Shown piece by piece: positions 34,113 through 43,104 of a stretch of 43,104 bases of DNA. The notes beneath the pieces are model-generated. The model had not been told where the DNA came from. It did no database searches and saw only the letters and a program-made list of their open reading frames with translations. Within the stretch, counting starts at the first letter, position 1. The number at the start of each line of letters is the position of its first letter. The DNA lies in assembly GCF_003334385.1 (NCBI RefSeq), contig NZ_QOWN01000036.1. One strand, written 5' to 3'. Both the position numbers and the translations under genes were made by a program. The DNA is from Escherichia coli. Lineage in GTDB: Bacteria > Pseudomonadota > Gammaproteobacteria > Enterobacterales > Enterobacteriaceae.

Positions 34113-34900
34113 TGCTGGCAGCCAGGGCACCAGTAAAACGGGCGAGATGACAGCGTGGTTTTCTCAATGATGCTGCCACAACGTTCGCACGGTTCGCCAT
34201 CTCGATGAAAAACCTTAAAGCGAAACAGCGCCCCATGATGCTTATTCTCATCCACCTGCCCCCGCGTAGCGTAGGAAAATCGAGGAATCTCCAGTAACGC
34301 GTGTGCGAGTGCATCCAGTTGCGCCGCATTGAGATCTTTCGCTTTATGATTTCCAGTCAACCCAACCTGCCAGAGGATCTCCACCCGCAAATAATTGCCA
34401 AGCCCAGCCAGAAACGCCTGATCGAGCAGTAATCCAGCAAACTGACGGTTACGAAAGCGCGGCGACAATAATCGTTCTTTCACCACCTCCGGCGTCAGAT
34501 TCGGATCCAGCACATCGGGACCAACGCGTTGTAAAAACGGATGCGTGGTCAGTTGTTCCGGGGTCAACATCTCAATATCCGAGGCGCTATAAAGCAGAAT
34601 GGTTTTGTCAGCCGTTTGCAGTTTTACCCGCAATACTCGCGTGGTCTGCGGCTCTTCGCCGGTATCAACCACGCGCCAGACGCCGTAAAGCTGATTATGG
34701 CTGTAGAGCGTTAAGTCGTTGGAAAAATGAGTTAACAACGCCTTACCACGCGTTTCCACATGGGTAACGTGTTGACCGATAAGTTGTGATTGATAAGGTT
34801 TTAACTGCGGGAAGGCAAACCAGACATCAGTTAGTGGTTTGCCTTTGATCGCCGCCTCCAGGTTATCCGCTGCACGGCGGATCTCCGGGCCTTCAGGCAT
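34109..34900 (-). CDS. nei: Endonuclease VIII (DNA glycosylase/AP lyase)
   Basis: 263-aa ORF with N-terminal MPEGPEIRR catalytic motif and C-terminal zinc finger ([25 protein letters not shown]). Confidence 0.95.
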
Positions 34901-34935
34901 GGTGATATCCTTTTTTCATTCTTTATTAATCGGGG

Positions 34936-35670
34936 TTATGCTGCGACAACAATCCCCTTTTCGGCAAATGCAGAGCGTAGTCGGCGGGCGAACGCCAGTG
35001 CGTGCTCGCCGTCGCCATGCAGGCAGACCGTTTGCGCCGCGACCGTTGCCCATTCGCCGGTGATACTTTTGACTCTGCCGTGTTGCACCATCTCCAGCGT
35101 TTGCGCCAGCGCCTGTTCTTCGTTTTCAATCAACGCGCCTGACTGGCTTCGCGGCACCAGCGAGCCGTCAGCCTGATAACCGCGATCGGCAAACACTTCC
35201 TCGCGCGTTGTCAGACCATATTGCTTGCCTGCACGAATCAGCTCGCTTCCCGCCAGCCCGACGAGAATCAATGCTGGATCGCAAGCGTATACCGCTCTGG
35301 CGATGGCGTCTGCCAGTTGTGCTTCTTTCGCCGCCTGGTTGTACAACATGCCGTGCGGTTTGACATGACGCATTACGCCGCCTTGCGCACGGGCAATCGT
35401 TGCCAGCGCGCCAATTTGATACAGCGTCTGGGCGTAAACGGTTTCTGGCGGCAGCTGCATGGCGCTGCGACCAAAATTTTCCCTGTCGGGAAAACTCGGG
35501 TGAGCGCCAATCGCGACACCATTTTTTATTGCTTCACGCACGCAAGCCTGCATGATTTGCGCATCGCCTGCATGAAATCCACAGGCAATATTGGCAGAGG
35601 AAACCAGCGTTAATAGCTCTGCGTCGCTGGCGCAGCCTTCGCCCAGATCGGCGTTCAGGTCAATTTTCAT
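34936..35670 (-). CDS. pxpA: 5-oxoprolinase subunit A (LamB/YcsF family; YbgL)
   Basis: 244-aa ORF ([20 protein letters not shown]...). Confidence 0.92.
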
Positions 35671-36592
35671 TGTGCAGCCGCCACGCTAATTGTTCAAAAT
35701 AACGTTGCTGATCTTGCCGTGCTTTTAGTGCCTCTTCCAGTGAACACTGGACAAAATGAATCGGCTGACCGAGCGGAATTTGCGCCAGATGGTACATATC
35801 AGCCTCAATGATACAGGCAATACGCGGGTAACCACCGGTGGTCTGTGCGTCGTTCATCAACACAATCGGCTGCCCGTTATGTGGCACCTGCACCACGCCC
35901 GGTAACAAACCGTGAGATAACAGTTCGCGATCGGTGGTGCGTTTTAAAATTTGCCCCTGTAAGCGATAGCCCATGCGGTTACTTTGCGAGCTAAGCTGCC
36001 AGGGCGAACGCCAGAATGCATCCTGCGAGGCGCGATCGAACTCATGATATTCCGGCCCCGGCAAGGCGCGAATGCGGTTGCCCCACAGCAGCTGTTTAAC
36101 GCCCTGCGCTTCCATAGAATCACGCTTCGATTTGCCAATCGGGAGTCGGTCACCATCCTTCAGTAAACGGCCTTCCAGCCCGCCAATCCCCACTTTGAGA
36201 TCGGTGCTGCATGAGCCCATTACCGGCGGAACATCAATACCACCCGCGACCGCCAGATAACTGCGCATCCCGTGCTGCGGGCGTTTAAGCGTTAAACGCT
36301 GGCCTGCTTTCATCGGCAATCGCCAGCCGGTCCAGACGGCATTATCATCCAGCCGCGCTTCGCAACCGGCACCCGTCAGAGCAAACCACCCATCAGTTTC
36401 GAACTCAACAGTTAACTGACCGAGCGTGATCTCCAGCGCGGGGGCATTGGCGTCATTACCCACCAGTAGGTTAGCAATGCGTAACGCGGGCATATCCAGT
36501 GCGCCGCAGTGGCTGATACCCGACTGGCGAAAACCGTGACGACCGCCATCCTGCACAGTGGTATACATGCCCGCACGAATAATCTTCAGCAT
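35660..36592 (-). CDS. pxpC: 5-oxoprolinase subunit C (YbgK)
   Basis: 310-aa ORF; 11-nt overlap with pxpA. Confidence 0.92.
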
Positions 36593-37242
36593 ACTCCCTC
36601 CTTCTGCGGTACAAAGCGCACGCTGTCTCCCGGACGTAATAAGATGGGTTCGTCACGCGCCGGATCAAACAGGCTGAGTGAGGTATGACCAATCAACTGC
36701 CAGCCACCCGGCGTTGCCAGCGGATAAACACCAGTCTGCGGCCCGCCGATCCCGACAGAACCTGCCGGAACGAGTAAGCGCGGTTCAGCGCGCCGTGGCG
36801 TGTGTAGTTGTTCCGGCAAACTCCCGAGATACGGGAAGCCCGGTTGAAAACCTAAAAACCAGACCACGTATTCCACGGAGGAGTGCAATTCAACAACCTG
36901 TTTTTCGCTCAACCCGCAATGCGCCGCGACCACCGCCAAATCCGGTCCGCCTGCACCACCGTAAACCACCGGAATTTCAATAAAGCGAGACTCCGGCTCC
37001 AGCGCCTCGCTCTCCTCCCACCAGCGTTGCAAACGCTCTATGGCATCCAGCGCCAGCGACTCAGGATTACGCAAAATCACCGTGATATTGTTCATGCCGG
37101 GAATGGCTTCAACCACATTCGGCATATCCACCAGACGCTGCGCCAGTCGCCAGATCCGTTTCTGGCTAGCCAGCGTCACCGGCGGTTCCAGTTCCAGCAC
37201 TACCGCCGTTTCACCTATCAGATAACAACGCGCTCGTTGCAC
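36586..37242 (-). CDS. pxpB: 5-oxoprolinase subunit B (YbgJ)
   Basis: 218-aa ORF; 7-nt overlap with pxpC. Confidence 0.92.
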
Positions 37243-37264
37243 TTTCGATCCCTCTGATTATTCG

Positions 37265-38008
37265 TTATGCAGGATTAGGAATATCAATAAAGGTCACATC
37301 AAGATCGGTATTTTCATTCAGCCACTCGCTCAATGCGCGAATACCACCACGTTCAGTGGCATGGTGACCTGCAGCATAAAAATGCAATCCCTGCTCGCGG
37401 GCTGAATGAATGGTCTGTTCAGAAACTTCGCCAGTAATAAAAGCATCCACGCCAAAACGCGCGGCGCTATCGATAAAACTTTGCCCGCCGCCCGTGCACC
37501 AGGCGACGCGCTGGACCACCTCAGGTCCGGTATCGCCACACCATAACGGCTTACGTCCCAGACGCGCTTCAATCCAGGAAGCCAGCTCCAGTCCCGGCAC
37601 AGGCATGGTCAGTTCGCCCCACGGCACCAACGGCTCAATTTCGCCCATGACCGTGATCCCCAGTAACGCCGCCAGCTGTGCGTTATTGCCCAGCTCAGGA
37701 TGTGCGTCAAGCGGCAAATGCCAGCCATACAGGTTGATATCATTCGCCAGCAACGTTTTTAAACGGTTACGCTTCATTCCGCGAATGACCGGAGACTCTC
37801 CTTTCCAGAAGTAGCCATGATGCACAATGACCGCATCCGCGCCCAGACGCACTGCCTCATCGAGCAAAGCCTGGCTGGCGGTGACACCGGTAACAATTTT
37901 TTGCACCGTCTCTTTGCCTTCCACCTGCAAACCATTCGGCGCGTAATCACTAATCGCCGCGCTGTTCAGTTTTTCGTTAATCAGTTGTTCCAGTTCGGTG
38001 TTTTTCAT
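37265..38008 (-). CDS. ybgI: Nif3-family metal-binding protein YbgI (GTP cyclohydrolase 1 type 2 homologue)
   Basis: 247-aa ORF recognised as YbgI; first gene of the ybgI-pxpBCA-nei cluster. Confidence 0.92.
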   Translation of the reverse strand: MKNTELEQLINEKLNSAAISDYAPNGLQVEGKETVQKIVTGVTASQALLDEAVRLGADAVIVHHGYFWKGESPVIRGMKRNRLKTLLANDINLYGWHLPLDAHPELGNNAQLAALLGITVMGEIEPLVPWGELTMPVPGLELASWIEARLGRKPLWCGDTGPEVVQRVAWCTGGGQSFIDSAARFGVDAFITGEVSEQTIHSAREQGLHFYAAGHHATERGGIRALSEWLNENTDLDVTFIDIPNPA

Positions 38009-39909: not shown

Positions 39910-41328
39910 TTATTTCCCCTTCCGCGCCGCCTCATACGCTGCCAACGTTTGTACTCTCGCTTCTTTGTGCTCGACTATCGGTTGCGGATAATCCAGCGTC
40001 ACACCTGCTTTCTGCGCCCACTTCCACGGCTCATGCACCACTTTCCCTGGCACATCGCGCAGTTCCGGTAGCCACTGGCGGATAAACTCGCCCTCATGAT
40101 CAAATTTCTCGCCCTGGGTTGTCGGGTTGAAAATACGAAAATACGGCGCTGCATCGGTTCCGGTTGAAGCGGCCCACTGCCAGCCACCGTTATTGGCTGC
40201 CAAATCACCATCAATCAGCTGCGACATGAAATATCGCTCGCCTTCGCGCCAGTCGATCAATAAATCTTTCACCAGAAAACTGGCTGTAATCATCCGTAGC
40301 CTGTTATGCATCCAGCCAGTGCTGTTAAGCTGACGCATAGCGGCATCAACAATCGGGTATCCCGTTTTGCCTTCCTGCCAGGCCTGTAAATGTGCGGGAT
40401 TGCTCTGCCACTGTACACGATCCGTCCAGGCAATAAATGGACGATGTTTACACAACGAGGGGTGATACGTTATCAGGTGACGGTAAAACTCGCGCCAGAT
40501 CAGCTCATTAAGCCAGACACTACCGGCCCCACCGTCCAGCGCCTGCGGCTGTTCAGCCAACAAGCGATGCAAGCACTGGCGAGGCGATAACCCGCCCGTT
40601 GCCAGGCTGGCCGACAAACGGCTGGTGCCTTCCACTGCCGGAAAATCTCGTTGTTGCTCATATTCTCCGGCACCGTTCTGGCAAAACTGGCGTAATTGCG
40701 CAATCGCCGCTTTTTCTTCCACCGGAAAATGCGCAGTATCGAAAGACTGACGAGGATAATTCAGCGTAATGGATGGCGAGGGCTCTATCGATCCGCTACT
40801 ACGAACTTTTGGCGCAGCGACGCACTCCGGCATCCCTTCCCGCAGCCGTTTCAGCCAGGCATTCTTAAAAGGCGTAAAGACTTTGTACATCTCGTGATTA
40901 CCGGTCATCACCGCGCCAGGCGGCAGGATCACGCTGTCATCAAATCCTTCACACACCACGTTACGCAGCGCTCTTTCAACTTCCACATCCCGCGCCCGCT
41001 CATTCACTTCATACTGATAGTTATAAAACAGGTGGGTAACGCTGTTTTCCGCGCACACCTGTTTAACTATTTCGACACTGGCGACAAAGTCATCCACTTC
41101 ACGGAACAATAAAGGAATACCTTTTTCCGCAAGCGCTATTTGTAGCCCATTCAGTTGAGCATTGATAAGTTCAGCCTGACGCGGCGACATGTTATGCGTC
41201 GCCCACTGGCGTGGTGTAGCGATATACAACGCCAGCACGCGTGCAGACGAATTGCGGCAGGCGGCAGCCAGTGCGAGATTATCGTGCAGACGTAAATCCT
41301 GGCGAAACCAGACCAGATGGGTAGTCAT
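39910..41328 (-). CDS. phr: Deoxyribodipyrimidine photolyase (CPD photolyase)
   Basis: 472-aa ORF (MTTHLVWFRQDLRLHDNLALAAA...) with photolyase/cryptochrome FAD-binding domain. Confidence 0.95.
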   Translation of the reverse strand: MTTHLVWFRQDLRLHDNLALAAACRNSSARVLALYIATPRQWATHNMSPRQAELINAQLNGLQIALAEKGIPLLFREVDDFVASVEIVKQVCAENSVTHLFYNYQYEVNERARDVEVERALRNVVCEGFDDSVILPPGAVMTGNHEMYKVFTPFKNAWLKRLREGMPECVAAPKVRSSGSIEPSPSITLNYPRQSFDTAHFPVEEKAAIAQLRQFCQNGAGEYEQQRDFPAVEGTSRLSASLATGGLSPRQCLHRLLAEQPQALDGGAGSVWLNELIWREFYRHLITYHPSLCKHRPFIAWTDRVQWQSNPAHLQAWQEGKTGYPIVDAAMRQLNSTGWMHNRLRMITASFLVKDLLIDWREGERYFMSQLIDGDLAANNGGWQWAASTGTDAAPYFRIFNPTTQGEKFDHEGEFIRQWLPELRDVPGKVVHEPWKWAQKAGVTLDYPQPIVEHKEARVQTLAAYEAARKGK

Positions 41329-41834
41329 AAAACTCCTGAATGGCGCAAGTTAATCACACGCGGCCAAAGTTCGAAATAACGCTGCCCTGAAAGCCAGGCG
41401 TCAGGATAAAGCGCCATATAGTGTTTGATACGCATCAGCGGCGCAAGAAGTGGTTGCTCGCCACGGCGATAACTGTCGATAAGCGCAGCCAGCTGCTGGC
41501 GTTCTGTGGAATCAATATGCGGGCGAAAATAACCCTGAACGTGCATCAAAACATTGGTGTGATCGCGCGGGTTGGCGGGGTGAGAAAGCAAAACAACTAC
41601 GCGTTGGCGGTACTGGTTGTAATAGTCATCCAGATTTTGCCACTGGTGAATATCAGCCACGAACGGGCCAAGTTTGCGGTACTCCGGCTGAGAATGCGCC
41701 AGAAAGACGAGTTTATAGCGGCTGTGATAATCGAGAAGCGCCCCGCGCGTTAAGCCATGTTCTTTCAGTCGATGTAACTCATGAAGGGCAAAGATACGGA
41801 TTAGGGTGCTGTCATCAAATCGTTGTAGATTCAT
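41325..41834 (-). CDS. ybgA: DUF1722-family protein YbgA, co-transcribed with phr
   Basis: 169-aa ORF whose stop overlaps the phr start (ATGA). Confidence 0.9.
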   Translation of the reverse strand: MNLQRFDDSTLIRIFALHELHRLKEHGLTRGALLDYHSRYKLVFLAHSQPEYRKLGPFVADIHQWQNLDDYYNQYRQRVVVLLSHPANPRDHTNVLMHVQGYFRPHIDSTERQQLAALIDSYRRGEQPLLAPLMRIKHYMALYPDAWLSGQRYFELWPRVINLRHSGVL

Positions 41835-41917
41835 TACTGCTCCTGAGCGGTTTACAGGAGTAAGTGTAGACGTTGAGAAATGATATTTGTGAAGTTAATC
41901 CTGTTGTAGCAGGACAA

Positions 41918-41977
41918 ATTTACGAAAGCCTGCTCCCCGCAAGGACTGACGTCAGGTAGTTTCTAACCATAGCTGCC
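41918..41977 (-). repeat. H-repeat (ISAs1-family) 3'-terminal segment, displaced downstream of truncated ybfD
   Basis: About 55 bp nearly identical to 42873-42930, which encodes the C-terminus of the ybfL ORF; here it translates as ...NYLTSVLAGSRLS* but is out of context after the ybfD stop. Confidence 0.6.
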
Positions 41978-41981
41978 CTTT

Positions 41982-42743
41982 CTATTCAAACGTGAAATCA
42001 ATAAGCTCATCAGGGACATCGCAAACAATATGAAGACGGGTTTCTTCTCTGCCGTGACTCTTTTCACTAATTGCGTAACTGTCATGCTTGGGATTATTTA
42101 ATTCTTTCAGCGGAAATTTTTCCTCGAAGGCTTTATTTAGCCGCCCCTGGTTTCCTTTTACAGCGAATAAATAATCACCTCCCTGTTTTTGTATCTTCTC
42201 TGCAATATCTTTCTGGCAACCCATCGCATCAGTTGTGATGATTTTTCCTTTAATATCCAGCATGTTAAGAAGTTCAGGGATAGCTGTGATCTCATTGGAT
42301 TTCTTATCCGTCTTGATCTGTCCGATGACCAGACTGTGCATTGTTGAGAACGCACTAATGACATGAATCGCTCCCTTACGGCGACTCTTGTCATAAGAAT
42401 GCCGGTGTATTTTTCCATCAATTGCGATGACGTCTTTATCATCTGAAGAATGGTAGTCAAGCATCCAGTTAATAAAGCTCTCATGAAATTTCGCAGGACA
42501 GATACAGGATACAACTCTGGCAATGGTATCGTGAACAGGAATACCATTTTCAAAATCACCATATTGCTTCAAAAAATCGGGATGTGTTTCCCCAAAATCC
42601 TCTATATCTTCCCAGCCTTCTGCACCAGAAATAACGGCACAAATAGTCAACAGTAGAATATCCGATAATTTATGTTCCACTTTCCAGGCTTGTCTGTAAT
42701 CGGGGATAATAGAAATATGTTCCATCAATTTTTTAAGTTCCAT
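41982..42743 (-). CDS. ybfD: H repeat-associated protein YbfD (ISAs1-family transposase, C-terminally truncated)
   Basis: 253-aa ORF with DDE-transposase-like sequence, ending abruptly at DFTFE* where full-length H-repeat proteins continue. Confidence 0.88.
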
Positions 42744-42873
42744 TTTGTTCTCCTTAATTATGTAAGAAGTATTTGATCATGTATAAGCAATAAAAAACAG
42801 CTTCAGGTAATAAGGAATATCTCAATTTTTAAACATAAAATGCGAATTATTTAGTACAAAAAGCAGGGAAAGA

Positions 42874-43104
42874 TTACGAAAGCCCGCTCCCCGCAAGGAC
42901 TGACGCGAGATAGTTTCTATCCATGGCTGCTTTTCGCATCTTACGTCTTAACCCTGCCTTGAATACCTTATCATTCGTTAAAATATTAATAGCGATGTGC
43001 CGTATCCCTGAAAATAATTCTGCGGCGTTTCCTCTTCTTATTTTGCAGTCGTCTTCATTCATTACCACGTCCAGACGCCAGTGCAGCTTATTCTCCACGT
43101 GCCA
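42874..43104 (-). CDS. ybfL: H repeat-associated protein (ISAs1-family transposase), 3' portion; continues beyond window
   Basis: 74 aa visible (…[35 protein letters not shown]…[16 protein letters not shown]), matching the conserved C-terminus of ISAs1/H-repeat transposases; the ORF is open at the window edge. Confidence 0.8.

Follow-up and report, generated by a model that had tools for sequence, protein, structure and literature searches.

YbgA, encoded upstream of the Escherichia coli photolyase, as an almost certain descendant of the tRNA desulfidase RudS and a candidate RNA-binding protein

The Escherichia coli gene ybgA, which encodes a DUF1722 protein, lies on the same strand as the photolyase gene phr and immediately upstream of it. 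Both genes were studied in a 43,104-nucleotide stretch of contig NZ_QOWN01000036.1 (assembly GCF_003334385.1), referred to below as the window. The locus raises the question of why such a protein should accompany a light-dependent DNA repair enzyme. The initial annotation regarded YbgA as a protein with no assigned function and proposed a part in photoreactivation, chromophore handling or the ultraviolet (UV) response. Comparison of the locus across genomes makes it close to certain that YbgA is instead a descendant of the tRNA desulfidase RudS.

Descent of YbgA from RudS

RudS, described by Jamontas et al. 2024 (PMC11417400), joins the [4Fe-4S] desulfidase TudS (DUF523) to DUF1722 in a single protein. 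It strips sulfur from 4-thiouridine (s4U) at tRNA position 8, giving uridine; s4U in tRNA is sensitive to near-UV, and RudS overexpression cuts the growth delay that ultraviolet A (UVA) induces in E. coli (PMC11417400). Docking and mutagenesis put the DUF1722 domain of RudS on the tRNA anticodon arm, and the description of YbgA as functionally unassigned is therefore outdated as far as its family is concerned (PMC11417400). The rudS gene is often found within light-responsive operons with photolyase and LitR, and stand-alone DUF1722 genes account for 21% of all DUF1722 genes (PMC11417400). For E. coli, the authors reported only the stand-alone DUF1722 protein YbgA, without TudS and RudS (PMC11417400).

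The DUF1722 profile PF08349 matched YbgA over residues 41–158 (model positions 1–117 of 117, E = 6e-35), and the YbgA equivalog NF007549 covered residues 1–169 with 347.9 bits against the NCBIfam cut-off of 237. The structural domain is wider than the Pfam match and spans approximately residues 8–166. According to the AlphaFold model, run on a 144-sequence alignment, the protein is all-helical, with an overall predicted local distance difference test (pLDDT) score of 96.9 and a score of ~98 over residues 11–160. Structural matches to this model in the AlphaFold database (AFDB) were all DUF1722 proteins, with template modelling (TM) scores of ~0.9. A sequence search of the PDB with YbgA returned nothing relevant, and the fold is without a solved relative.

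No PF04463 (TudS/DUF523) match was found in YbgA, which begins at the interdomain linker. The three Cys ligands, the catalytic Glu, Ser and Arg residues and the [4Fe-4S] site are all missing along with the TudS domain. The other half of RudS corresponds to TudS, a stand-alone DUF523 thiouracil/4-thio-UMP desulfidase (6Z92) with no matching sequence in YbgA; a profile of RudS and YbgA sequences matched PDB entry 6Z92 solely through the N-terminal domain of its fused members.

In a scan that took a single genome from each species, 470 related loci were confirmed, and the 80 closest, all from Enterobacterales, were examined. Full RudS with the three TudS cysteine motifs is encoded in 57 of them, three others deviate solely in reading SPTCG instead of SPSCG, and 17 encode stand-alone proteins of less than 200 aa. 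Residues 8–165 of YbgA align with residues ~160–320 of RudS proteins of 310–345 aa that bear the three motifs. The flanking gene order kdp-ybfA-(rudS or ybgA)-phr-(dtpD)-ybgI is common to Citrobacter, Pluralibacter and Yersinia, and these shared neighbours make YbgA the positional orthologue of RudS.

A photolyase gene lies directly downstream on the same strand in all 80 loci. The adjacency was also found in Yersinia and in four distant RudS/DUF1722 loci (31–39% identity), and it is reported in Pseudomonas and Shewanella, so that the linkage is not limited to close relatives of E. coli, a restriction that the initial annotation had considered. Two distant stand-alone DUF1722 genes lie on short contigs: in one (L096) the N-terminus of a photolyase comes next, and in the other (L091) the neighbour is not a photolyase.

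The start region of the gene bears on how TudS was lost. Escherichia ybgA can be aligned at its ATG, its AGGAG and the CTACACTTA element 35 nt 5' of the ATG with the beginning of both full-length Citrobacter rudS and Citrobacter stand-alone genes. Proteins of the C. freundii complex begin with MS.RIPVGI.TC, which is the RudS N-terminus, fused straight to the DUF1722 half. Taken together, the aligned start region and this N-terminus indicate that the TudS codons were deleted in frame. A tblastn search of the DNA 5' of E. coli ybgA gave no remnant of TudS-coding sequence, and TudS-like DNA was undetected in 97.7% of the complete E. coli genomes searched (n = 5426), which argues against a gene split. 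An ancestral rudS-phr operon of near-UV or light stress, from which the pair descends, is the better explanation of the linkage of ybgA to phr.

RudS proteins such as P. putida PP_0741 and S. enterica STM1389 resemble YbgA in DUF1722 homology, which covers the whole length of YbgA, and in all-helical fold family; position upstream of phr, start codon and -10 element agree with those of enterobacterial rudS. YbgA differs from RudS in lacking TudS and, in K-12, in carrying Pro at the Arg244 equivalent. The gene, its operon, its family, the role of DUF1722 in RudS and the association with photolyase are already published. Added here are the origin by in-frame deletion with start codon and promoter kept, rather than by a gene split, and, as described below, recurrent TudS loss, ongoing purifying selection, gene loss in Salmonella, Kluyvera and Lelliottia, and the restriction of the ATGA overlap between ybgA and phr to Escherichia.

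Full-length RudS also occurs as an accessory gene. An extra full-length DUF523+DUF1722 (RudS) gene was found in 123 of the 5426 complete E. coli genomes, and full-length RudS is encoded on ~300 PLSDB plasmids (Klebsiella, Escherichia, Shigella, Thermus and others). On an IncF plasmid (L101, 3602–4561) the gene order is MerR-uraH-RudS, with no photolyase.

Recurrent loss of TudS and selection on the remaining domain

At least four lineages have lost the TudS domain or carry an inactive form of it. On the photolyase tree, stand-alone forms fall into separate groups divided by full-length lineages. Their N-terminal junctions read FD[DE][SN]TL in both Escherichia and the C. freundii complex, MCENF... 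in Trabulsiella, MLESNQ... in Yersinia and ...W L x DD x KTR in the Klebsiella/Enterobacter JUb54 group. The stand-alone DUF1722 proteins of Yersinia, Trabulsiella, some Klebsiella and the C. freundii complex share the architecture of YbgA, are likewise encoded upstream of phr and evolve under purifying selection; however, the junctions of the first three differ from one another and from that of YbgA, which points to separate deletion events.

Other states of the domain were also observed. In Pectobacterium cacticida the protein is full-length but every cysteine and catalytic motif has been replaced, Samsonia RudS carries Ser in place of Cys44, and the N-domain is partly deleted in Tatumella, Leminorella and Affinibrenneria. 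The photolyase tree does not separate full-length RudS from TudS-deleted alleles within the C. freundii complex (L034, L046 and L026 versus L016–L020 and L068). This intermixing, together with the junction that the deleted alleles have in common with Escherichia, points to either a long-standing polymorphism or the exchange of alleles between the genera.

In three genera the whole gene is missing. At the syntenic ybfA-phr-ybgI locus of Salmonella enterica (L097, 2880–3012), Kluyvera (L098) and Lelliottia (L099), ybfA is followed directly by phr, with neither ybgA nor rudS. Both the TCTACACT -10 element and the TTCAGGAGTT-ATG belonging to phr are still present in Salmonella, and the gene therefore appears to have been cleanly excised; a search for a ybgA remnant upstream of Salmonella phr gave chance-level matches only. 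Since phr is kept without a DUF1722 gene in all three genera, photolyase is independent of this neighbour.

Selection was assessed from pairwise Nei-Gojobori ratios of nonsynonymous to synonymous substitution rates (dN/dS), comparing the DUF1722 region with phr from the same genomes. For the stand-alone forms, the respective values were 0.13 and 0.093 in Escherichia, 0.084 and 0.069 in the C. freundii complex, and 0.114 and 0.094 in Trabulsiella; in fused lineages they were 0.027–0.053 and 0.06–0.10. Neutrality was rejected in every stand-alone pair tested (p = 7e-8 to 8e-16). Conservation in fused enterobacterial RudS reaches at least 90% at 94 positions, and each of the four stand-alone lineages retains 63 of these. 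The lost positions cluster in the former interdomain linker (8–10), in the C-terminal tail (156–165) and, in Escherichia only, in a loop equivalent to RudS_KT 241–246.

RudS_KT numbering was mapped onto YbgA via a proxy RudS (P0206), with 14 of the 21 numbered residues in common. By this mapping, RudS_KT S243, R244 and T246 align to YbgA N88, P89 and D91. The loop of fused enterobacterial RudS reads T/S-R-R-N with the Arg invariant, and the Arg244-equivalent position is Arg in 61 of 61 full-length enterobacterial RudS. Substitutions S243M and R244M approximately halve RudS_KT activity, N202M and N203M lower it too, and Arg244 was modelled touching a phosphate of the anticodon region (PMC11417400). 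On these comparisons, stand-alone YbgA is maintained by selection, with an RNA-contact loop that is possibly altered. Purifying selection despite the lost catalysis suggests that YbgA has a use of its own.

Possible functions of YbgA

The reading that we favour, and hold to be somewhat more probable than its negation, is that YbgA is a RudS remnant acting as a non-catalytic RNA- or tRNA-binding protein expressed with photolyase. A RudS ancestor composed of TudS[4Fe-4S] and DUF1722 lost its catalytic domain by in-frame deletion, and the resulting gene retains the RudS start codon, Shine-Dalgarno sequence and -10 element at the ybfA-rudS-phr locus. Unable to desulfurise tRNA, the protein would bind tRNA or other RNA through its basic DUF1722 domain, and this binding would act in the near-UV or stationary-phase stress setting common with photolyase. 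YbgA would be neither a cofactor nor an obligate partner of that enzyme.

Binding of tRNA or other RNA would be the most likely activity of YbgA, to which the conserved residues and a basic isoelectric point (pI) point indirectly. The DUF1722 domain is basic in fused RudS, with a pI of ~9.5, in Escherichia (pI ~9.5, net charge +4 to +7) and in Citrobacter; in Trabulsiella and the Klebsiella group the basic net charge is lost. The Keio ybgA deletion scored as hypersusceptible to epetraborole, an inhibitor of leucyl-tRNA synthetase (LeuRS), alongside the tRNA-modification mutants trmU, trmC and yheM in a single screen (PMC12457515), a weak hint of a link between the gene and tRNA.

A further proposal, which we advance tentatively and rate at a little under an even chance, is that DUF1722 has a function independent of TudS. 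It might, for example, bind, read or protect tRNA without catalysis, possibly tRNA that contains s4U or is damaged by UVA, in a protein expressed with photolyase under sigma-S. Such a function would explain why at least four enterobacterial lineages independently dropped the catalytic domain yet kept a selected DUF1722 beside phr.

Several observations weigh against a retained RNA-binding role. Constraint on the stand-alone forms is 2–3 times weaker than on the fused domain, truncated ybgA alleles occur in some E. coli and Shigella, and, because Salmonella, Kluyvera and Lelliottia no longer carry the gene at all, its function is dispensable in some lineages. The Arg244-equivalent position, again as mapped through P0206 and not RudS_KT itself, is Pro89 in K-12 and P, R, T or S across Escherichia. 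Six RudS orthologues lowered s4U, whereas overexpressed YbgA had no significant effect on it and altered neither tRNA s4U nor growth on thiouracil, although this is expected of a non-catalytic protein (PMC11417400). Electrophoretic mobility shift assays (EMSA) of tRNA binding were reported for full RudS_KT alone (PMC11417400).

Foremost among the alternatives, though improbable in our estimate, is that YbgA has no protein function and that its open reading frame (ORF) is a decaying relic kept in cis for its promoter and leader and for ATGA-aided expression of phr. The forms found can be arranged as a decay series, from intact RudS through dead TudS, truncated TudS and DUF1722 only to no gene; the relaxed constraint and truncated alleles fit it, as does the lack of an overexpression phenotype (PMC11417400). 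However, the stand-alone dN/dS of 0.08–0.13 is close to that of phr in the same genomes, with neutrality rejected at p < 1e-7, and a translated leader needs no conserved protein, yet the same 63 RudS positions were kept in four independent lineages. Moreover, the overlap is confined to Escherichia, phr has an AGGAG of its own, and Salmonella has the same -10 element and Shine-Dalgarno sequence for the expression of phr without any ORF.

A role for YbgA as dedicated photolyase partner, be it in supplying or handling the chromophore, in folding or targeting the enzyme, or in photoreactivation itself, is less probable still. It is the role that the initial annotation had in mind, and some databases name YbgA a "photoreactivation-associated protein". 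The invariable succession of phr after the DUF1722 gene in the 80 loci, including those that lost TudS, and the photolyase that follows a distant stand-alone gene would agree with it. Against it, Salmonella, Kluyvera and Lelliottia have kept phr but not the DUF1722 gene, and the fold also contradicts it, as the confidently predicted structure of YbgA is unlike any cofactor-binding fold.

Least probable is a substrate-recruiting subunit that delivers tRNA in trans to a separate catalyst (an accessory or phage TudS or RudS, or an unrelated enzyme), an idea favoured by the gene split that the RudS authors raised as a possibility (PMC11417400) and by the accessory RudS genes of E. coli and plasmids, but opposed by the lack of detectable TudS DNA in nearly all complete E. 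coli genomes, by the published absence of TudS and RudS from the species (PMC11417400), by the fact that accessory RudS copies bring their own DUF1722, and by the divergence in stand-alone forms of the N-terminal linker and C-terminal tail that are conserved in fused RudS.

If YbgA does act as a non-catalytic RNA-binding protein, the substrate-recognition module of an enzyme would have survived as an independent factor, and the near-UV response of E. coli via tRNA 4-thiouridine would be tied to the photolyase operon.

Junction, promoter and surroundings of ybgA-phr

The ybgA-phr region of the window is 100% identical to that of E. coli K-12 MG1655, whose annotation names the two genes ybgA and phrB, and the pair was found in 5423 of the 5426 complete E. 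coli genomes. Phr matched NF007955 (deoxyribodipyrimidine photo-lyase equivalog) with 958.3 bits, the cut-off being 506. Coordinates are given in Table 1.

Table 1. Positions of ybgA, phr and associated features in the window
Feature	Coordinates	Strand	Basis or remark
phr (phrB), class I cyclobutane pyrimidine dimer (CPD) photolyase, 472 aa	39910..41328	-	ORF, NF007955, annotation
ATGA overlap of ybgA stop and phr start	41325..41328	-	
ybgA coding sequence	41325..41834	-	169 aa, stand-alone DUF1722, corresponding to the C-terminal RudS half without the TudS domain; ORF, PF08349, NF007549, K-12 annotation
AGGAG Shine-Dalgarno sequence of phr	41333..41337	-	within final ybgA codons
Pfam DUF1722-matching part of ybgA	41361..41714	-	residues 41–158
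Pro89 codon of ybgA	41568..41570	-	equivalent of RudS_KT Arg244 (via proxy P0206)
Upstream block conserved in Escherichia (~38 nt)	41835..41872	-	alignment
AGGAG Shine-Dalgarno sequence of ybgA	41840..41844	-	kept across Escherichia and Citrobacter
TCTACACTTA, candidate sigma-S-type extended -10 of the ybgA-phr promoter	41861..41870	-	inside conserved upstream block
ybfD, truncated ISAs1-family (H-repeat) transposase	41982..42743	-	NF033564, annotation

On the minus strand, the junction reads ...TCAGGAGTTTTATGACT, split as CAT TCA GGA GTT TTA TGA CT, with the phr ATG at 41328–41326 and the ybgA TGA at 41327–41325. The initial annotation had noted this shared ATGA and deduced co-transcription and translational coupling from it. 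The overlap itself holds; obligatory coupling does not follow, as phr has its own Shine-Dalgarno sequence and the ATGA is limited to Escherichia among the loci examined. The 4-nt overlap was present in 12 of 12 Escherichia sequences and in none of 74 other loci. Across the 80 loci, the spacing between the DUF1722 gene and phr ranged from -4 to +163 nt, genera other than Escherichia having gaps of 3–163 nt. Overlap is also unremarkable here, because in the surveyed 14-kb neighbourhood of ybgA-phr other same-strand junctions (pxpA/pxpC and pxpC/pxpB) overlap as ybgA/phrB does. Given their common orientation, ybgA and phr are presumably co-transcribed as one transcript; a consensus scan of the region found no terminator-like site between them.

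Two E. coli assemblies contain 595-aa proteins combining DUF1722 and photolyase (P0279 and P0280). These YbgA-Phr fusions presumably arise from a frameshift or sequencing error at the ATGA overlap.

Among Escherichia, only ~38 nt 5' of the ybgA ATG are conserved; farther upstream, the sequence depends on the neighbour. The -10 candidate within this block came from conservation, while a consensus scan of the DNA upstream of ybgA gave no promoter of the sigma-70 type. We take TCTACACTTA to resemble an extended -10 element of the sigma-S type. One promoter compilation includes ybgAp1, a sigma-38 promoter, and the ybgA-phr promoter is probably this sigma-S-type one. As the DNA upstream of the block is strain-specific, the position of a -35 element is not conserved.

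Beyond Escherichia, CTACACT occurs 32–35 nt 5' of the ybgA/rudS ATG in most genera of Enterobacteriaceae. The Pectobacteriaceae variant is CTATGCT, and the consensus CTAYRCT is present in 59 of the 80 loci. The regions upstream of rudS in Rahnella and Erwinia (L029, L065, L081 and L087) are without CTACACT and carry palindromes of the TGTACAA...TTGTATA type, which may be operators for another, possibly light-responsive, regulator.

In photolyase operons of light or photo-oxidative stress (LitR/MerR in Pseudomonas, RpoE2/ChrR in Shewanella), the DUF1722 gene is co-oriented with photolyase as in E. coli; in Shewanella, ybgA-phrB-cfa was described as an RpoE2/ChrR operon in one study. The E. coli operon differs in having two genes, with no MerR/LitR, BLUF or cfa, and a sigma-S-like -10 element instead of a promoter controlled by an extracytoplasmic function (ECF) sigma factor or LitR.

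The strain-specific upstream neighbour in the window, ybfD, lies outside the ybgA-phr operon. Depending on the strain, the DNA beyond the -10 element of ybgA (41873–43104 in the window) consists of ISAs1 H-repeat copies by rhsC (K-12, O157), immunity genes of contact-dependent inhibition (CDI) systems, or ybfA where no island is present. A direct repeat, ttacgaaagcc.gctccccgcaaggactgacg, at 41920–41952 and 42875–42907 delimits two ISAs1-family transposase (H-repeat) copies on their 3' side: ybfD and the copy that comes next in the upstream direction. The ybgA-phr segment (39910–41834) is unusually diverse within E. coli, being just 90–95% identical to K-12 in 1759 genomes; this may be connected with the variable Rhs/CDI/ISAs1 region bordering the promoter of ybgA.

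On its other side, phr lies near ybgI, encoding a NIF3-family "radiation resistance protein", and nei, encoding endonuclease VIII, with ybgI-pxpBCA-nei at ~34800–38000. In several other genera ybgI comes directly after phr, so that genes related to DNA damage are clustered here.

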